From positions 215,863 to 279,862 of the forward strand of contig CAZAOT010000001.1 of the NCBI GenBank assembly GCA_964487045.1: a stretch of DNA of 64,000 nucleotides, written 5' to 3'. This stretch comes from an uncultured Candidatus Saccharibacteria bacterium (GTDB lineage Bacteria; Patescibacteriota; UBA1384; DTJR01). The notes beneath the pieces are model-generated. The model was not told the DNA's origin. It did not search any database and worked only from the letters and a program-made list of their open reading frames with translations. The first letter of the stretch is position 1; each line of letters starts with the position of its first letter. Of this stretch, positions 7,327 to 57,830 are shown one piece after another. Position numbers and translations under genes: made by a program.

Positions 7327-8118
7327 ATGATGGAAAAGCTGTTTTACGGTCAGCCGGAGGTGGTTGCTGCAACTAGCCCCGTCGACGTTTTTGAAGTAGG
7401 TAATGGGTGGGGTCTCGCCAGGCAACAGCTGTATAACGACCCTTGTGCATTGGCGGTTGCCAGAGTCGAAAACTGCGCTTTTCTGGTCCGTTTCGAAAAT
7501 GGCCCAGAAATTGACTGGCAGGCAGGAGAGGGCTGGGGATGGTGTTTTCACGACGGCGGCTTCGTGCATACCGATATGCCAGAAGGCGGTAGATATATCT
7601 ACCCGGCCGTCGATCCTCTAGTGTTGTTCGCAGTCAGAGACGGCTGGGACTGGGAACAATTCCAGTATGCTCGCATGCTGCAGATCATCTGCGGCATCAG
7701 CGGTATGTACGAGCATGGGCAGAGCGTGTTCGAAGAACTCTACCCGAAGCTAAAGTTCCGCAAGAGTCTCGGTAACTACCAGGATCTCAGTAACGCGCTG
7801 GTTGCTGCCACTGCAGGACGTATGGCTCATCGGAGGGTCACAGTCCTAGGAGATTTCTGTAAGACGCAGCTCCAATGCGCAGGCAAGGGTGACAAGCGTC
7901 CCCTTGAGGCTCTGGTTACTACCCAGGGGCCAGTCGGTTATGTTGCTAATAGGCTCAAGGATGCCATCTATGCCATGATGGATGTCTGTAACAGCCTTGT
8001 CGGTGATTCAGTGGATCTTCAAGGCAGAAAGCTACTGCCTCGCAGTGAAGAACCGACGAGCGCCCTGGATTTCACGAAAGTCGACGAGGAATTACAGCGT
8101 ACGATCAACCTATTGTAG
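7327..8118 (+). CDS. GC-rich cassette A: hypothetical protein of 263 aa
   Basis: The open frame is visibly GC-rich against the AT-rich flanks. A TATAAT lies upstream and a hairpin (ggttgcc...ggcaacc) downstream at 8138-8160. Confidence 0.5.
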   Translation: MMEKLFYGQPEVVAATSPVDVFEVGNGWGLARQQLYNDPCALAVARVENCAFLVRFENGPEIDWQAGEGWGWCFHDGGFVHTDMPEGGRYIYPAVDPLVLFAVRDGWDWEQFQYARMLQIICGISGMYEHGQSVFEELYPKLKFRKSLGNYQDLSNALVAATAGRMAHRRVTVLGDFCKTQLQCAGKGDKRPLEALVTTQGPVGYVANRLKDAIYAMMDVCNSLVGDSVDLQGRKLLPRSEEPTSALDFTKVDEELQRTINLL

Positions 8119-8172
8119 TTCTGTTTGTAGAGTTGCCCACGGGTTGCCTGATTCTTAGGCAACCCTTCTTCT

Positions 8173-9129
8173 CTATAGCCAAGTAGTGATACGTTTGATC
8201 GCATCAGAGGAACTTTTTATCAAAATCAAATCTTGTTGTTTGCGAAGCCAAGTCAGCTGTCGGCGAGCATAGCCGTGAGTTTTCCATTTAAGCTCCTGAG
8301 CCATTTCTTTGAATTCTTTGGAATTTAAGACTTGAGATTTATGATTTGATTGGAACTTGGAAATTGGAACTTGGAAATTTTGCGTTAAATAATCGCTAAT
8401 TATTCTATATTCGAGACCTAGGGATTCGAGCCACTGGTGTGATACTCCACTGCTGAGCAATCCTACTACTTCCTCTAGCATCCTCTGCTTAGCGAATCGA
8501 ACATCAACTCTCTTATCAATTCTGCTATAAAGTTCTTCTCTGGGTAGGTCGATCGCTAATATTAAGCTTTCAAAATTAGGCTTTTGCTTGGTTGTACTAA
8601 TTCCCTCTTGAGTTTTTTCGATCGCTCGAATCAGCCTGCGAGGGTTTTGTATATCCAATTTTTCTGAATCTATTTTTAATTTTTTTATTAACTTTTGGAG
8701 CTTCTCTAGGGTCATCTTGTTAAGTATGTCTCTAGAATAATGTTGCGAAGCGACTCCTGAGCTCTTAGTTCTTAGTTTTGAGCTATCAGATATGCGAAAT
8801 CCTTCAGCCAGCGCTTTTGCATATAATCCTGTCCCCCCGACTACTATTGGCAATTTGCCGGCGCTAAATATTTCTTCAATTTTTGTTTTAGCTTGTTCTA
8901 GCCAATCAAAAAGTGTGAATTTTTCTTCTGGAATGCAAATATCGATCAGGTGATATTTAACGCCATCATATTCACTAAGGTCCTTGCCAGAACCGATATC
9001 AAGGCCCTTATATACTTGGCGCGAATCAGCTGAAATAATCTCGCCATCAAATTTTTTGGCGAGTTTTACGGCTAAGGATGTTTTGCCTGATCCAGTTGGT
9101 CCTAAAATAAAAACCACTTTTCTTTTCAT
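8173..9129 (-). CDS. miaA: tRNA dimethylallyltransferase
   Basis: MKRKVVFILGPTGSGKTSLAVKLA P-loop. The alternative upstream start at 9165 would leave only 21 bp to the divergent comM. A tandem 15-bp repeat lies in the 3' coding region. Confidence 0.8.
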   Translation of the reverse strand: MKRKVVFILGPTGSGKTSLAVKLAKKFDGEIISADSRQVYKGLDIGSGKDLSEYDGVKYHLIDICIPEEKFTLFDWLEQAKTKIEEIFSAGKLPIVVGGTGLYAKALAEGFRISDSSKLRTKSSGVASQHYSRDILNKMTLEKLQKLIKKLKIDSEKLDIQNPRRLIRAIEKTQEGISTTKQKPNFESLILAIDLPREELYSRIDKRVDVRFAKQRMLEEVVGLLSSGVSHQWLESLGLEYRIISDYLTQNFQVPISKFQSNHKSQVLNSKEFKEMAQELKWKTHGYARRQLTWLRKQQDLILIKSSSDAIKRITTWL

Positions 9130-9186: not shown

Positions 9187-10728
9187 ATGAGCAAGCTCTC
9201 AAAAGTCTATTCAATTTTTACTCATTCACTTGATGCTAATTTGGTTGAGGTTGAAGTTGATGTTGGTGCCGGTATTCCTTCTCTTATAATTGTCGGTCTG
9301 CCCGACAAGTCAGTAGAGGAGGCCAAAGAGCGGGTTAAGTTAGCTATAAGAAATTCAGGATTAGATTTTCCAGATAAAAAAATAATTGTAAATTTAGCTC
9401 CGGCTGACCAGAAAAAGGAAGGACCTCTTTATGACCTGCCAATTGCGATCGGAATTCTAGCTGCCACTGGTATGATTGATGGCGAGAAGTTAAAGAAGAC
9501 AATTTTACTTGGCGAACTTTCTCTCTCTGGTGAAATCAAACCTGTTAGAGCAGTTATCCAAGCGGCAGAACTTGCAAAAAATAAAAATTATAATTTAATA
9601 ATCCCTTCACAAAATTTGATGGAGGCGGGCTTGATCGAAGGGGTCAATGTTTATGCCCCGGAAAATCTGCAAGAACTATTTAAATCCTTAGAAACGAAAA
9701 AGGAAATTTTTTCGAAAACCAAAAAGCCGAAGATTCCATATCTAGACGATTTTGGTGAATATGATTTTTCAAATATAGTTGGGCAGTTTATGGCTAAGCG
9801 TGCATTAGAAATTGCTGCCGCCGGAGCTCATAACATTTTATTTTTCGGCTCTCCCGGCGGCGGAAAAACCTTATTGTCTAAAAGTATCGTTTCGATCCTG
9901 CCGGAGTTGAACGAACAGGAGATGCTGGAAGTTACGAAAATTTATTCGGTTGCTGGGATGCTTTCGAGCGATAAGCCAATTATTAATTGCCGACCATTTT
10001 TATCTCCTCATCACACAACCTCACCGGTCGCGATTATCGGCGGAGGGACCAATCCAAAGCCCGGATCCGTTTCGCTTGCACATAAAGGAGTTCTTTTTCT
10101 TGATGAGTTTCCAGAGTTTCCTCGTTCTGTTCTCGAAGCTCTGCGCCAGCCGCTTGAAGACAGGGTTGTGACGATATCAAGAGCCCAAGGCTCGATCACT
10201 TATCCGGCTGATTTTATGCTCGTTGCCTCCGAGAATCCTTGCCCTTGTGGTTATTATGGTGATCCCAAGCGAGAATGCACTTGCTCGACAACACAGATTA
10301 TTGCCTATCACAAGAAAATTTCTGGTCCGATGCTCGATAGAATTGACCTTCACCTAGAAGTCGAAAAAATTCCGCTTAAAACTATCAAATCAAAATCCAA
10401 AGAAGAGCCTTCGTCGGAGGTTCGCCGGAGGGTCAGCAGTGCCAGAAATATCGCTCTTTCGCGAGCGCAGAAATTACTAAATAAACCCAAATTAAATAGC
10501 GCTCTTAGTCGCCAGGATTTGCTCAAAGTTGCTCCGCTTGATAGTGCTTGTGAAAAATTACTTGAGGACGCATGTGATAAACTAGACCTATCGATGAGGC
10601 AATTTTTGAAACTGCAAAAAATCGCGAGAACAATTGCTGATCTGGAAGGCGCGACCAATATTAGCATTTCACATTTATCGGAAGCCCTTCAATATAGATC
10701 AAAGAAAGGAGAGCGCGGTGGAATTTAA
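9187..10728 (+). CDS. comM: Mg-chelatase-like AAA ATPase, ComM/YifB family
   Basis: N-terminal Lon-like domain, an AAA core (FGSPGGGKT), and a C-terminal ChlI-like domain. Confidence 0.85.
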   Translation: MSKLSKVYSIFTHSLDANLVEVEVDVGAGIPSLIIVGLPDKSVEEAKERVKLAIRNSGLDFPDKKIIVNLAPADQKKEGPLYDLPIAIGILAATGMIDGEKLKKTILLGELSLSGEIKPVRAVIQAAELAKNKNYNLIIPSQNLMEAGLIEGVNVYAPENLQELFKSLETKKEIFSKTKKPKIPYLDDFGEYDFSNIVGQFMAKRALEIAAAGAHNILFFGSPGGGKTLLSKSIVSILPELNEQEMLEVTKIYSVAGMLSSDKPIINCRPFLSPHHTTSPVAIIGGGTNPKPGSVSLAHKGVLFLDEFPEFPRSVLEALRQPLEDRVVTISRAQGSITYPADFMLVASENPCPCGYYGDPKRECTCSTTQIIAYHKKISGPMLDRIDLHLEVEKIPLKTIKSKSKEEPSSEVRRRVSSARNIALSRAQKLLNKPKLNSALSRQDLLKVAPLDSACEKLLEDACDKLDLSMRQFLKLQKIARTIADLEGATNISISHLSEALQYRSKKGERGGI

Positions 10729-12405: not shown

Positions 12406-13084
12406 TCAATTAGGCCCGAATATCGATCATATTCCGACGCCTAAAAAGAAAAAACAAAATTATATTTGGGCTTTATTTAAAGATATTGTTCTAGTAACTT
12501 TTTTTTCATTTTGTGTTTTCATATTCATCAATTTCCCGGCAATTACATTGATTGGTACTTACAAATTGACTCCACATCGACTCGCTTATGATTTTCCAGC
12601 CCAGGCTGAGACTCAGAGTCCGACTGCTATTGAGTCAAAAACTCCGGAGGCGCCAAAGATTGAACAATATCCTGATAATATGATTTTTATTCCTAAGATC
12701 GGGGTGAAAGCTCCCATCGACTGGGACGTCACAAGTGATAATGTGATGGACGAGCTCGAAAAGAATGTCGTTCATCTCAAGGATACTGATAAGCCGGGTG
12801 GGCCTGGCAATATCTTTGTGACTGGTCACAGCTCAAACTACTGGTGGAAATCAGGAGAGTATAATACGGTCTTCGCTCTAGTTCCTCAGCTTGTCGAGGG
12901 AGATGAAATCATCATCACCTACAAAGGAGAATTTCATTATTATAAGGTCACTGACAAGCAGGAAATGCGAAAAGACGAAGTTTCAAATCATCTCGAATCG
13001 GGTCGGCCAAGACTCACGCTTATGACCTGCGTACCAGTTGGAACGAATTTGAGAAGGATGTTGGTGTTTGCTTCACCCCGTTAG
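12392..13084 (+). CDS. sortase family transpeptidase
   Basis: N-terminal TM helix, catalytic His (VTGHSS), TLxTC motif (LTLMTC) and a conserved Arg. Confidence 0.8.
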   Translation: MVLLDQLGPNIDHIPTPKKKKQNYIWALFKDIVLVTFFSFCVFIFINFPAITLIGTYKLTPHRLAYDFPAQAETQSPTAIESKTPEAPKIEQYPDNMIFIPKIGVKAPIDWDVTSDNVMDELEKNVVHLKDTDKPGGPGNIFVTGHSSNYWWKSGEYNTVFALVPQLVEGDEIIITYKGEFHYYKVTDKQEMRKDEVSNHLESGRPRLTLMTCVPVGTNLRRMLVFASPR

Positions 13085-13232
13085 AGATTAGCGCAAGCCT
13101 TATTATGTTTAATTAGATTAGAAGATAAGAATCGATATTCAAAAATAAACTAAAGGAAGTTTTATCTCTAACGGGGCAAGCCAGTTAAGAAGTAATTTAT
13201 TGAAAATGCACAAGTTTGGTATAATCAATTTG

Positions 13233-22300: not shown

Positions 22301-22334
22301 TTTTTCTTTTCTGATGCAGGGGGTAAGAGAACCT

Positions 22335-22680
22335 ACTTGCGAAGCGGTTCTCCTACCCCCTGCACCCCCCTCTTTGCTCGCCCAAAAGACGATTTTGCTT
22401 TCTGAGACACTCCGAAAATCGCTTCGCTAGAATCGGCCTCTCGAAGCGCAAAATCGACTTTTGATAAAGGAGGGTTGGTCTTTTTGTTCGGGCAATATGC
22501 GATTGCCCGAACAGCAGGTAAAGCGAAAATTTTCTTGTTTCAATGAGTAGGCCCGCAAACTTGTCGGGTAGAGGCTCATTAGAAAAAGAAAATTTGAGCA
22601 GTCCTTGAAGCGTGTAAGGGTGAGGAAAGTTTTGAAAACCTAGGGAATTTGCCCGCAACAAATTCCTGGGTTTTCAAAAT
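22335..22680 (-). repeat. copy 5 (inverted orientation, diverged) of the recurrent structured element
   Basis: The reverse complement matches the shared blocks ccctaggttttcaa..tttcctcaccct and carries the terminal hairpin ttttgaaaacctaggg..cccgcaa..ccctgggttttcaaaa. Confidence 0.5.
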
Positions 22681-28736: not shown

Positions 28737-29261
28737 GTGATTGATTTGTCGAAGCAAGAACGGACAACCGGACTCGTTGTTGTAGCAGCGGTCGTAGGGA
28801 TCTGGATCCTTAGCCGCATCGTCGGCGATGGCTTCGGCGAGACGTTCTGCGAGATCTTGGCCGTGAGCGCCGGCGCCCTGGTCTGTACCATACTGGCATC
28901 TGCGCTGCTGACGAAGCCGGATGGGAAGATGCCGGAGGAGAGTGCTATCATCGGGCTCTTCATGATCTTCTTTGTCCTGCTGGCTATCCCGCACTTCAGT
29001 GTCTCGGCCAAGCTTGCGTCGAGCAAGTGGCAGATGAAGATCGCGGTGGCCCACGACTATGACAAAGCAGGGATCAAAGAGGCGCTCACCCAGCGTGACG
29101 AGACGCTCCGGCGCTCGAGTGCTTACATGATCGGTGACGGCTGGAAGTATGACCGTCACACCCACTACTTCAACCGGGGCTGGAACCTGTATCTCTGGGT
29201 TCCGTTCTCCGGATACCGGCGCAAGCCGGTCACGACCAACGGCCTGGGGACTAGTCCCTAG
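28737..29261 (+). CDS. GC-rich cassette F: hypothetical integral membrane protein (3-4 TM)
   Basis: GC-rich ORF with a structured ~100-nt leader and a GGGAGG SD. The start could be the GTG at 28737 or the TTG at 28746. Confidence 0.5.
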   Translation: MIDLSKQERTTGLVVVAAVVGIWILSRIVGDGFGETFCEILAVSAGALVCTILASALLTKPDGKMPEESAIIGLFMIFFVLLAIPHFSVSAKLASSKWQMKIAVAHDYDKAGIKEALTQRDETLRRSSAYMIGDGWKYDRHTHYFNRGWNLYLWVPFSGYRRKPVTTNGLGTSP

Positions 29262-29317
29262 GCCGTTTTTGATTGAAAAAAATCAAATTATAAGGTATAA
29301 TTTCGATGTTTGATGAT

Positions 29318-31937: not shown

Positions 31938-32034
31938 CTAGTATTTCATAAACGCACGGCTCTGGAGTAATTCAGAGCCGTGCGTTTATAAGAAACCACC
32001 TGCTCTTTGAGAGTTAGGTTAAGGAGGAACGGCC

Positions 32035-40544: not shown

Positions 40545-40655
40545 CTCCTTAGGTTGGCTTACTAGCTACACTATAGCACTATTTAGCCCGTTAGAAATTG
40601 CCGACGCCTTGTATGCGCCGATATTGTGTATTTATATCTTAGTCGGCATCGATTT

Positions 40656-41483
40656 CTAACGGGCCGAGAAATATGTCTCTACAAACTTTTTTGCCGCTTT
40701 GAGATTTTTTATCACCGCTTCTTCGGTGATATTTCCCTTCTTATCAGCATACTGTTCGCACCAAAGTTCGATTGAAATTGGACCGAAATATTTATCGGCC
40801 CTTAATTGACGCAAAAATTTTTTAAGTGGTAATTTGCCCTTGCCGGGAAGGAGATGGCAGTCTTCAATATTACCCGGCTTTTTCGGACTTGGTCTCATAT
40901 CAGAGTCAGAAAAATGAACATGGCCGACTTTTTCTTTAATTTTTTCATAATACTGCATAATATCCATTTCGGCAGTTGCGATGTGGGATGTATCTAAATT
41001 TATAGACTCAAAAGCCTGCATCACGTCGAAGTGATAGCTCGGATTGAGAGTATTGCCAGAGGTGAAATCATCGCGTTTGGTCGCATTTTCAATCACCACT
41101 TTAACTGGTTTGGCAAGCTTGAAGACACTCTTTTGATTTTCAATCAACCAAGTGACGTATTGCGGATCAGAGTAATCCCAAGAATGCAAAATTAAATATT
41201 TTGCCTTCAGCTCCTTGGCGAGTTTAATCGATTTCTCGAGTCTATTTTTCCAGTCGCCCCAAGAATAAACAAATTCCATCGCTGAGTGAATTGATGTGAC
41301 CTTGAGGGAAAATTTTCGCTCTAAGCGTTTAATGTATTTGGAGTCTTGAGAGTCGAGTCGGTCATCGATAATTAATTCGATATTCTTAAATCCAGCTTTT
41401 TTCGCAACCTCAAAGAACCGGTATAGCCCATATCGGTGACAAGATCCGGTCGATAAAGTCAATTGATTTTTAAGTGTAGCCAT
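40656..41483 (-). CDS. sugar phosphate isomerase/epimerase (xylose-isomerase-like TIM barrel)
   Basis: AP-endonuclease-2/XylA-like TIM-barrel pattern in backbone composition. Confidence 0.6.
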   Translation of the reverse strand: MATLKNQLTLSTGSCHRYGLYRFFEVAKKAGFKNIELIIDDRLDSQDSKYIKRLERKFSLKVTSIHSAMEFVYSWGDWKNRLEKSIKLAKELKAKYLILHSWDYSDPQYVTWLIENQKSVFKLAKPVKVVIENATKRDDFTSGNTLNPSYHFDVMQAFESINLDTSHIATAEMDIMQYYEKIKEKVGHVHFSDSDMRPSPKKPGNIEDCHLLPGKGKLPLKKFLRQLRADKYFGPISIELWCEQYADKKGNITEEAVIKNLKAAKKFVETYFSAR

Positions 41484-45831: not shown

Positions 45832-46203
45832 ATGAAGAATGAAATCTTACTTGGAATAGATTTTGGAACTAAGAGAGTGGGGGTGGCTATTTCTCATGGA
45901 TTTATGGCCGAAGGGATAGCGACTCTTGGTTTTTCGAATAAGGAAAGTTTTTATAGTGATTTAAAAAAAATAATTGTAGAGCAAAAAATCGAAAAAATAA
46001 TTGTTGGTTTGCCGATGGGTGTTGATGGTGATACGCATCAAACTTTGTGGACTAGGGAAAGAGGCGAGGAGCTCGGTGAAGAAACTGGCCTACCGGTTAT
46101 TTTTGTTGACGAATCATACTCTTCTGTAGAGGCCGACAAGTATAATTCTGATCGTGATAGCGAATCAGCCAGAATAATATTGGAGCAATACTTGGCCCGT
46201 TAG
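45832..46203 (+). CDS. ruvX: putative Holliday junction resolvase / pre-16S rRNA nuclease RuvX (YqgF)
   Basis: Sequence LGIDFGTKRVGVAIS. The stop codon lies inside the inverted-repeat arm gcccgttagagaca. Confidence 0.75.
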   Translation: MKNEILLGIDFGTKRVGVAISHGFMAEGIATLGFSNKESFYSDLKKIIVEQKIEKIIVGLPMGVDGDTHQTLWTRERGEELGEETGLPVIFVDESYSSVEADKYNSDRDSESARIILEQYLAR

Positions 46204-46211
46204 AGACAACC

Positions 46212-46472
46212 ATGTATTATACTTATGTATTGCGAAGTAGCAAAGATAAGCATCTCTATACAGGTTGCACAAAAGATTTACGGAAGCGCTTAGATCAGCA
46301 TGTTAGAGGGCGGGTTTATCCAACTCAAGCTAGGGGACCATTTGAAGTGATATACTATGAAGCGTGTTTGGATAAGCAAGACGCTTTTGCAAGAGAAAAA
46401 TATTTAAAAACAGGGTACGGGAAACGTTATCTGAAAAACAGGCTTAAGCGCTTCCTGTCTCTAACGGGTTAA
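46212..46472 (+). CDS. GIY-YIG nuclease-domain protein (UPF0213/YhbQ-like), flanked by 14-bp inverted repeats
   Basis: GIY-YIG pattern YYTYVLRS...LYTGCT...R...H. The inverted repeats lie at 46195-46208 and 46456-46469. Confidence 0.75.
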   Translation: MYYTYVLRSSKDKHLYTGCTKDLRKRLDQHVRGRVYPTQARGPFEVIYYEACLDKQDAFAREKYLKTGYGKRYLKNRLKRFLSLTG

Positions 46473-55144: not shown

Positions 55145-57830
55145 TAGACTTTTTGGCGGTAGCAATTCACGAGAAGTTAGAAAGCTCGATTCTATTGTTG
55201 CAAAAATTAACTCCTTTGAAGAAGAATATAAAAGTTTAAAAGACGAAGAGCTTCCTAAGAAGACTGAGGATTTTAAGCAAAGAATAGCCTCAGGCGAAAC
55301 CCTTGATAGCATTTTGCCTGAAGCTTTTGCTCTTGTGCGTGAAGCATCTGGAAGAGAGATCGGCCAGAGGCATTTTAATGTTCAGATGATGGGAGGAATC
55401 GTTCTGCATCAAGGCAAGATCGCTGAAATGCGAACTGGAGAAGGTAAGACTTTGGTCGCTACTTTGCCTTTATATCTAAATGCACTCTCGGGCAAGGGAG
55501 CTCATCTAGTCACCGTAAACGATTATCTCTCTAAGTATCAGGGAGAATGGATGGGTCGGGTTTATGATCGATTGGGCCTTAAAACAGGGATTATCCAAAA
55601 CCAAGGTGTGAGCTTTATTTTTGATCGTGCCTGGAATAAGGAAAAGACAGAAGATGAAAAAAAGGCAGCCGAAGTATGGGAAGAAAACTTAAAGCCATGC
55701 ACTAGGGCTGAGGCTTACTTAGCTGACATTACTTATGGAACTAACAATGAATATGGTTTTGATTACTTGCGTGATAATATGGCACAAAGCAAAGAGCAAC
55801 TTGTTCAAAGGGATCTTAACTTTTCTATTGTCGATGAAGTTGACTCGATCCTAATTGATGAAGCAAGGACCCCACTTATTATTTCTTCTGCTGCCGAAGA
55901 GTCAGCTTCGCTTTATGCTCAGTTTGCCATGATCGTGCCACAGCTTAAAAAGGATCTGGATTTTGAAGTTGACGAAAAGTTAAAGGCGATCTCACTGACT
56001 GATGATGGAATCTCAAAACTCGAAAAAATTCTGAAGGTAGATAATATTTATAGGCCAGAGACGATCGCATTGGTGCACCATCTTGAGGAGGCGCTAAAGG
56101 CTCATGCACTATTTCAAAAAGATAAAGATTATATTGTCAAAGATGGCGAAGTTATTATTGTGGATGAATTTACTGGCAGACTAATGCCAGGCAGAAGGTA
56201 TTCAGAAGGCTTACATCAGGCTATAGAAGCCAAAGAGGGCGTGATGGTAAATCGCGAATCTGATACCTTAGCGACGATTTCTTTCCAAAATTTCTTTAGA
56301 TTGTATGGCAAGCTTTCCGGTATGACAGGAACGGCTGCGACAGAGGCGGAAGAATTTCATAAGATTTATAAACTTGACGTTGTCGAGATTCCCACCAATA
56401 GTCCGATGGTCAGAATCGATATGCAGGATCAGATTTATAAAAATGAAGCAGCAAAGTTCAACGCCATTAGTGAAAAGATCAAGGAGCTTAGCGAAAAAGG
56501 TCAGCCAGTTTTGGTCGGAACTATTTCGATCGAAAAATCAGAAGTACTATCAAAATTACTTAAACGTTCTGGCGTAAAGCATGAAGTCTTAAATGCAAAA
56601 GCCCATGAGAAAGAGGCAAAAATTATTGCTCAGGCTGGAAGGCTTGGAGCGGTAACAGTTGCAACCAACATGGCCGGAAGAGGAGTAGACATCTTGCTTG
56701 GAGGAAGTCCCCAGATCAAGGAAGAAGCCGATAAAGTCAGAAAACTTGGCGGCTTAGTTGTCCTTGGTACTGAGCGACACGAGTCAAGACGTATAGACAA
56801 CCAGCTTCGTGGACGATCTGGTCGTCAGGGTGACCCTGGGATGAGTCAATTTTACATTTCAATGGATGATGATTTGATGAGAATTTTTGGCGGAGATCGT
56901 CTAAAGGGCATGATGGAGCGTATGGGTTTGCCAGAAGACCAGCCAATTGAACATTCATTTATATCTAAGTCGATCGAATCAGCGCAAAGGAGAGTTGAAG
57001 GGCATAACTTTGATATTAGAAAACATTTAGTTGAATACGATGATGTTATGAATCGACAGAGAGAAGTTTTTTATCGAAAACGAAAAAGTATACTTTCGCT
57101 CGACGTCGAAAAGGACGAGTTCCTGCATGATGAAATTTTGGAAAAACTTTCAGAAGAAGAAAAAGCTAGCTATCTGTCAAATTCTAAAAATGTTGACCCG
57201 AGAGCGATCAGAGATCTGGAGAGAAGAATATATCTCTCTATCATGGACCAGCTGTGGGTTGAGCATCTAAACACGATGGATCAATTAAGGGACTCTATAG
57301 GACTAAGGGGCTATGGCCAAGTCGATCCGCTTATTGCCTACAAAGAAGAGTCGCTAAGGCTTTTTGAAGGATTGATGCATCAAATAGACGACGAAGCGAT
57401 TGATGTCCTCGTAAAAATTAAAATAGATCAATCAGCTTCAAATTCAGCTGCTAAGCCTACCGTGCAAAAAAATAATCCGCTTGAATATCATGGAGCAGAC
57501 GAAACCGAAGGATCTGAAGTCATTGAAGAGACGAAAAATAGTTTAGAAACTTCCGCTCGCCCCGTTAGAGATTTACGAGAAGAAGCTGGTGAGCAGGCTA
57601 ATGATTATACACAAAATCCTGAGATCTCTAACGGGGTAAAAAAATCCCCAGAAAAACTTCCTACTAAGAAAGCTAGCGGCGGGGTGGTTGTCACAGTTAG
57701 AGATGCATCTAAGAAAATGGAGCAAGCGGTTAATCAGTCAGGCTCACCAAAACAAAACTCAAATATTGGACGCAACGATCCTTGTCCGTGCGGCAGCGGG
57801 AAAAAGTACAAAAAATGCCACGGTAAGTAA
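55125..57830 (+). CDS. secA: preprotein translocase ATPase SecA
   Basis: Motifs [14 protein letters not shown], a DEAD-like region, and the C-terminal zinc finger [14 protein letters not shown]. An in-frame inverted-repeat insertion lies in the C-terminal tail at 57560-57635. Confidence 0.9.

Follow-up and report, generated by a model that had tools for sequence, protein, structure and literature searches.

The stretch of DNA analyzed here (64,000 nt, hereafter the window) contains, at 46195-46469 on the plus strand between ruvX and mltG (yceG), a complete gene-carrying element consisting of a left end, a GIY-YIG nuclease ORF and a right end. Taken as a whole, our comparisons indicate that this segment is probably a member of a very widely distributed family of ultra-small transposable elements. 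The family is apparently undescribed, and appears to be a variant of the partnership between GIY-YIG nucleases and palindromic repeats with unusually clear hallmarks of a transposon. The left terminal inverted repeat of the element, CCCGTTAGAGACA (46196-46208, plus strand), contains an internal TAG (46201-46203) that is the stop codon of ruvX. The single-domain GIY-YIG ORF (46212-46472, plus strand; 261 bp, 86 aa plus stop) ends in the right terminal inverted repeat, TGTCTCTAACGGG (46456-46468, plus strand), which codes for its last four codons, the C-terminal S-L-T-G; the stop codon falls outside the repeat. The two repeats are complementary at 13 of 13 positions and form the inverted ends of a 274-bp stretch. 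An arm pair bracketing the ORF had been described in the initial annotation and was recovered here, the 13/14 match given there resulting from the outer bases 46195 (G) and 46469 (T), which are unpaired. The related contig L005 holds the full element at the same ruvX junction in a region that is 78% identical overall, with arms that differ from those of the window by one compensated pair of changes. In a relative sharing the locus the GIY-YIG protein is 86% identical, and the gene-carrying copy of the window has thus been vertically inherited.

The 86-aa protein matches the Pfam GIY-YIG family (PF01541, E = 1e-16) over residues 1-71, and the alignment shows that the family-invariant residues (Y5, Y16, T17, G18, R26, E50, and N76) are all kept. 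Its AF2 model is one compact domain (pLDDT 92, with only 61 for the tail, residues 81-86), and the best-matching relatives of solved structure are two UPF0213 proteins, BH0048 (E = 3.6e-10) and EF2693. In total, 2952 homologues of 65-86% identity were identified across phyla. Nearly all of them end in ...KRFLSLTG, which is the translated right arm, and the annotated N-terminal extensions (MNPVRE...) of some homologues are the translated left arm. A scan of one genome per species yielded at least 392 relatives of the protein, of which the best 80 were taken for the analysis of loci. The hosts of these best 80 of at least 392 comprise many classes of Patescibacteria, Omnitrophota, Planctomycetota, Syntrophales/Smithellaceae (Thermodesulfobacteriota), Elusimicrobiota, Bdellovibrionales, Clostridia, and Nitrospirota, at least eight phylum-level lineages in all. 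Among divergent relatives (P0258-P0382, 45-60% identity), a large subfamily ends in …(S/N)YLTG, and the L-T-G part of the arm (CTAACGGG) may thus be kept much deeper in the family, with inner arm positions that differ. The GIY-YIG nuclease is the sole ORF of the element, and no recognised transposase class (DDE, HUH, serine, tyrosine, or Cas1) is encoded. No conserved neighbouring gene besides GIY-YIG was found in 78 loci, and a partner gene acting as the real transposase was rejected on this basis. Carriage by phages or plasmids was also rejected, since no relatives were found in the 2.9 million viral contigs of IMG/VR and a tblastn search of 72,556 plasmids gave only two weak matches.

The ends of the gene-carrying element recur in three short gene-less elements of the window, which are 77-101 bp long and have mutually unrelated interiors. 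The first (13076-13176) has perfect 13-bp arms (13076-13088 and 13164-13176) around an interior of 75 nt, just as initially annotated, and a predicted hairpin fold with a z-score of -4.5; the TAG of its left arm (13082-13084) is the stop codon of a sortase gene. The second was likewise correctly located at 40586, and its stem extends to 24 nt (40586-40664; arms 40586-40609 and 40641-40664, with core arms at 40587-40598 and 40652-40663). The TAG of its right arm (40656-40658) terminates an AP_endonuc_2 gene on the minus strand, so that three of the eight arms in the window provide upstream genes (sortase, ruvX, and AP_endonuc_2) with their TAG stop. The third short element (57560-57636, plus strand) lies in frame in the C-terminal linker of SecA and is translated. 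Neither the stop codons nor the location inside SecA had been noted in the initial annotation. The initial annotation was right about the existence of this pair and its first arm (57560-57572), but the second arm is at 57624-57636 and the spacing is 51 nt, not 50.

Counting of the motif confirmed that such pairs exceed random frequency. The 8-mer CCGTTAGA occurs eight times in the 64-kb window against an expectation of 1.41, and all copies belong to the four perfect inverted pairs. With up to one mismatch allowed, the 12-mer gave eight matches versus 0.75 expected, a number reached in none of 100 shuffles. All eight arms are perfect 12-mers, no copies with one mismatch exist in the window, and at two mismatches there is no excess (17 vs. 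14.2 expected). The inner stem GCCGAC/GTCGGC of the second short element is also present in the SecA-tail element of a relative (L102), the stem common to window 40587-40663 and L102 12495-12570 reading GCCGACGCC…GTCGGC(A/G)TCGAT; one interior family can therefore span different loci of related genomes. The SecA tail of the window also carries, 57 nt downstream of the SecA element, the sequence ACAGTTAGAGAT (57693-57704; codons T-V-R-D), which is like the arm at 10 of 12 positions. The TVRD motif is conserved in the SecA tails of relatives, several of which bear RPVRD…ISNG inserts directly before it, and the site may be an insertion hotspot or an old arm. The size of 75-100 nt prompted a search for tRNA genes, which were rejected as an explanation because the seven tRNAs identified by ARAGORN are all elsewhere, none of them at the pairs. 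Three further inverted repeats of the window are unrelated to the element family and are probably terminators or operator-like sites: 31941-31996 (24 nt at 88%, 8-nt loop), 22315-22364 (19 nt at 95%, 12-nt loop), and a 19-nt palindrome just upstream of tRNA-Val (29238-29267).

Both arms were identified at 79 of the 81 homologous GIY-YIG loci (based on the best 80 of at least 392 relatives), where they delimit comparable units of 268-291 bp. Repeats thus flank the gene on both sides and are also dispersed, each flank carrying a half-site and the two together making up a single hairpin. The core CCCGTTAGA is invariant in the 73 non-redundant loci, neighbouring codons vary, and the synonymous third positions of the S-L-T-G codons are invariant in all 73. 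Since these synonymous sites are invariant and the C-terminal tail is the only low-confidence part of the protein model, the constraint evidently acts on the DNA. The variable arm positions (-1, 10, 11, and 12) match the partner arm at frequencies of 0.89-0.99, compared to 0.36-0.83 for shuffled partners. Among the metagenome matches listed, 145 short elements gave family ends of the form Y-CCCGTTAGA…TCTAACGGG-R, with positions -1 and +1 complementary in 92%, and the 14-bp terminal inverted repeats of full elements read Y-CCCGTTAGAGAY ... RTCTCTAACGGG-R. Gene-carrying and gene-less copies have these terminal inverted repeats in common. Outward of -1/+1 no enrichment of inverted repeats was observed, the signal in the flanks being a direct repeat. 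In the reading frames of the arms, one contains the TAG stop and the others read P-V-R / S-N-G or P-L-E / S-L-T-G. In a separate subfamily of short elements (45-69 nt), arms of the form CCCGTTAGAAG(C/T) enclose a pair of internal hairpins, which results in a three-way junction (L068 18616-18681, L077 873-934, L036 11341-11406, L025 9712-9780 and 16722-16780, and L028 9284-9328). Its inner stems covary between genomes of different CPR classes, and its folds are very stable (z -6 to -11.5) and have no match in Rfam. More generally, no Rfam family matched the window or any of eight loci in which structured short elements abound.

The direct repeat just outside the arms is found in one register only and corresponds to a 4-bp duplication with the consensus TNNA. 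In a metagenome sample independent of the genome loci (145 short elements among the matches listed, chosen for perfect arms), the duplication was perfect in 81, versus a permutation mean of 12.5 and a maximum of 26. Perfect duplications were also found in 24 of 70 gene-carrying elements (6.9 expected) and in 12 of 38 short elements of the genome loci (2.2 expected), the permutation nulls correcting only in part for shared ancestry and lineage-specific target preferences. The duplicated tetramers are varied (TTTA, TTCA, TGAA, TAAA, CGAG, and others) and hence represent target sequence, not element. A model of 5-6-nt direct repeats was replaced by a terminal inverted repeat one base longer together with the 4-bp duplication. 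None of the four copies in the window has a target duplication and their interiors are mutually unrelated, and mobility is accordingly inferred from the family and not from the window copies.

Presence and absence of the elements could be followed at two of the window loci, as the initial annotation had proposed. The ruvX junction is arm-free in L104 and L105; in L104 (SecA 73% identical), ruvX ends in ...EQYLNGK-stop and is followed by an arm-free spacer and then yceG. At the same junction, L102 (SecA 72%) carries a short element of 100 nt whose arms are perfect, and the full element occupies this position in the window and in L005. In secA, L101 (SecA 80%; the closest SecA relative compared in DNA) has a clean gap in place of exactly the 81 nt in which the SecA element lies, and L102 and L104 have degenerate orthologues of the element with the left junction as in the window. 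Logan contigs with the same proteins were 99.9-100% identical to the window and thus uninformative on strain-level polymorphism.

Near-identical copies were found in other genomes. A Yanofskybacteria contig (L056) has two copies that are 98.9% identical over 273 nt, with unrelated flanks and similarity ending ~12 nt beyond the arms, and a pair of copies from a single-cell genome of Elusimicrobiota shows 95% identity. Judging from their sequences, some short elements are internal-deletion derivatives of the gene-carrying element: a 119-nt element in L064 still has the arm and the start of the gene of the full copy next to it (ATG and first 18 codons), and short elements in L027 retain the last 23 nt of the GIY-YIG ORF. 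Arms-only elements of 25-31 nt with duplications also exist. Interior families have up to five members across contigs and most interiors are singletons, and short elements lie within 300 nt of the gene in 8 of 38 cases (1.5 expected). With duplications, deletion derivatives, near-identical copies and arms on 79 of 81 genes, the proposal in the initial annotation of a mobile element with MITE-like derivatives is supported across the family. Neither of the two outcomes named there as refuting it, a near-random frequency of pairs and a lack of presence/absence polymorphism in relatives, was observed.

Some elements are arranged head to tail with 5-6 nt between the ends (L064 2763-3161; proteins P0090 and P0120, …SLTGVNPVRD), the junctions reading for example CGGG-ATGAT-CCCG and CGGG-GTTAAC-CCCG, and this spacing suggests insertion beside existing ends. 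In protein P0263, a short element (…YPVRGRSPRGG…ASNGV…) interrupts, in frame, another GIY-YIG gene of this family at a point flanked by …ELI and YYE…; the nested insertion divides the region of the catalytic Glu. Representatives from Planctomycetota, Syntrophales, and Schekmanbacteria (L006-L015, L017, L018, L042, L093, and L094) share a context in which the element directly follows an ORF6N-family gene in a type I restriction-modification island. The left junction is identical across these phyla (…FDAIRQLY/PVRD), and the element may therefore have travelled there within a larger island.

The GIY-YIG gene nearly always points the same way as the genes next to it (59:8 upstream, 55:5 downstream) and follows or precedes them closely, with gaps of a few nucleotides and 19 ATGA stop/start overlaps, which points to expression from host operons. 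In one subfamily the duplicated ATG of the host serves as the element's own start codon. Among the metagenome matches listed, 64 of 123 short elements have lengths that are multiples of 3, and 28 of 77 multiple-of-3 short elements were located in open frames versus 2 of 68 others; from the latter counts, about a fifth of the short elements are translated inside genes. The short forms would be tolerated in compact genomes because the arm TAG can end an upstream gene, because the two other arm frames are open (P-V-R / S-N-G), and because the surviving intragenic copies are multiples of 3 and translated, as in SecA. In L056, GIY-YIG elements (7374-7646, 8132-8404, and 9985-10257; proteins P0249 and P0251) are located at the start of type IV pilin-like genes. 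Here the right arm reads directly into the prepilin motif (…SLTG/FTLIE…), and the arm-encoded Gly falls on the prepilin-peptidase cleavage position. Some databases annotate nuclease and pilin together as a single fused ORF, which can reach 600 aa.

At least two of the four elements in the window are also present in relatives, and as far as sequence comparison goes the four copies are old, fixed insertions. Their arms are perfect despite this age and the lost or missing target duplications, which suggests that the arms have been selected in place, an outcome not expected of elements that are purely selfish. Selection in place would be compatible with a host-level role like that of the Ssn nucleases described below, and also with continued recognition by the resident nuclease.

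The exclusive association of the nuclease with the arms leads us to infer that the nuclease mobilises the elements. As the comparisons show, a full element comprises ~274-283 bp, with 14-bp terminal inverted repeats around one 86-aa GIY-YIG ORF that fills the interior, the last four codons being the right repeat and the stop codon being supplied by the flanking target; insertion duplicates 4 bp of the target (TNNA). The putative nuclease would recognise the conserved ends and cut at the boundary between element and target, the ends possibly being recognised as a hairpin in single-stranded DNA, as by the related Ssn nucleases. Host repair or ligation would then complete the move. The other three pairs of the window are probably non-autonomous short relatives that keep only the ends, and elsewhere some such forms can be traced to internal deletion of a full element. 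GIY-YIG enzymes are hydrolytic nucleases, and neither strand transfer nor strand joining is known for them. The protein can therefore not by itself be a classical transposase, and host ligation or repair must be invoked. We tentatively propose that movement requires no element-encoded enzyme other than the 86-aa GIY-YIG nuclease, in which case the ~274-bp element would define a new, GIY-YIG-driven superfamily of prokaryotic transposons characterised by 14-bp ends and a 4-bp TNNA duplication; this narrower proposal is plausible but somewhat less likely than not.

The initial annotation knew of nothing comparable in this lineage, but a close analogue exists in the Ssn family, ~94-aa single-domain GIY-YIG nucleases that cut single-stranded DNA, and neither dsDNA nor RNA, beside a hairpin repeat, NTS/SRM (Chenal et al. 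2025, PMC11893778). The repeat flanks the ssn gene itself and occurs in hundreds of dispersed copies, NTS/SsnA in Neisseria modulates recombination or DNA uptake, and the authors remark on an IS-like and REP/RAYT-like look (PMC11893778). The NTS/SRM repeats correspond to the "CGTC-tagged REPs" and Rickettsia palindromic elements (PMC11893778, PMC3733652), for which no enzyme was known at the time (Di Nocera et al. 2013, PMC3733652). The elements studied here could belong to a domesticated system of the Ssn type, in which a site-specific single-stranded DNA nuclease serves the host, the arm hairpins are dispersed recognition sites modulating recombination or uptake, and the repeats spread slowly or by other means. 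We regard this as unlikely, yet it is the best of the alternatives. The architecture is alike, in that a ~90-aa single-domain GIY-YIG gene lies between copies of its own palindromic repeat, and further copies of the repeat are dispersed, clustered, and sometimes located inside coding genes (PMC11893778). The short elements fold into stable predicted hairpins, and the perfect arms of the old window copies, with complementarity kept in place in L005, also fit a host function. However, the repeat sequence is unrelated and lacks the CGTC tag: the SRM consensus HGTCWYN(0-2)YYVSBRHN(0-5)WNVSBRGN(0-2)RNCYNB gave no matches in the window (0.14 expected) and none within 400 nt of the gene in 80 loci. 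In our family the gene lies within a single hairpin made of two half-sites that are separated by 25-280 nt, whereas two complete hairpins of 20-50 nt flank the gene in the Ssn arrangement. Our hosts are mostly uncultivated lineages of the CPR/Omnitrophota type. Signs of selfish spread also speak against a purely host-serving system, namely diverse 4-bp duplications, insertions in essential genes, deletion derivatives, and 65-86% identity across phyla. Our family can be shown to have a 4-bp duplication as well as empty sites and deletion derivatives, and the consulted parts of the Ssn account mention no target duplication (PMC11893778). The Ssn-type and transposon readings are not mutually exclusive, and the alternative raised in the initial annotation, that the arms are a recognition site of the nuclease, is part of the same picture and not a rival to the transposable element.

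Far less probable is a free-standing homing endonuclease gene of the phage seg/I-TevI type, inserted between ruvX and mltG and leaving the arms as remnants of its recognition site. Like I-TevI and the Seg enzymes, the window gene has a GIY-YIG catalytic domain and resembles a selfish, horizontally spreading gene located between conserved host genes and missing from some relatives. I-TevI and Seg, however, have a separate DNA-binding domain, one conserved host target, no terminal inverted repeats and no gene-less derivatives; here the 86-aa protein consists of nothing but the catalytic domain, identical arms with target duplications are found at many non-homologous sites around unrelated cargo or none at all, the flanking genes vary by locus, and the 2.9 million viral contigs hold no relatives. 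An origin of the arms in place as RNA-level structures (terminators, RNase III sites, or REP-like mRNA stabilisers), with the GIY-YIG gene there by coincidence, is strongly disfavoured: the arms do lie at 3' ends of operon genes and form stable predicted hairpins, but their sequence itself, beyond pairing, is invariant across phyla, a T-tract is absent, intragenic copies are translated, Rfam gives no match, and there are target duplications and clean presence/absence.

The interest of the transposable element favoured here is that dependence on a GIY-YIG nuclease is not known for any bacterial transposon. To our knowledge, the enzymes of all established classes of bacterial insertion sequences are of the DDE/DEDD, HUH, serine, tyrosine, or Cas1 type. 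If our reading is true, an element with terminal inverted repeats, target duplication and a bare GIY-YIG domain would add a class of insertion sequence, and the size limit of a self-encoding element would drop to ~274 bp, the smallest self-encoding mobile element known. An autonomous element spread across many bacterial phyla would then seed thousands of hairpin mini-elements, many of them translated in essential genes. The Ssn-type partnership would gain a transposon-like form with defined ends, a 4-bp duplication, empty sites and deletion derivatives, and would be extended into the candidate phyla radiation, whose tiny genomes had been regarded as poor in mobile DNA. By donating stop codons, borrowing host starts and staying in frame within secA and pilin genes, the elements would be harmless in compact operons and a source of protein-length variation in these lineages. 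A predicted nuclease with a 9-bp invariant recognition core could also serve as a sequence- or structure-specific DNA tool.

Our literature search found no paper with this arm sequence, the matches being unrelated primers only, and no report of a bacterial GIY-YIG element with terminal inverted repeats and duplications. Integron attC-like sites were rejected as a counterpart, since no IntI-type integrase is among the conserved neighbours in 78 loci; the R''/R' cores of attC have the reverse order of the arms here. The REP/REPIN-RAYT systems (IS200/IS605-derived) share the arrangement of a single gene between inverted copies of a short palindromic repeat, the many gene-less hairpin doublets, and copies that are typically single and vertically inherited with conserved repeats. 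RAYT, in contrast, is an HUH tyrosine transposase associated with GTAG-tagged repeats and no target duplication, whereas the present family has a GIY-YIG hydrolase, arms that read CCCGTTAGA and lack the GTAG tag, and a 4-bp duplication. The short elements resemble bacterial MITEs (Correia/NEMIS, RUP, Nezha, and others), which are also short, non-autonomous, bounded by terminal inverted repeats and target duplications, located beside or inside genes with which they are co-transcribed, and derived from a larger element by internal deletion. Known MITEs are associated with DDE-type IS transposases or with no known enzyme, and their copies within a genome have interiors in common. In the family described here, by contrast, no protein other than a GIY-YIG nuclease is linked to the elements, and extreme diversity of the interiors goes along with ends that are conserved across phyla.
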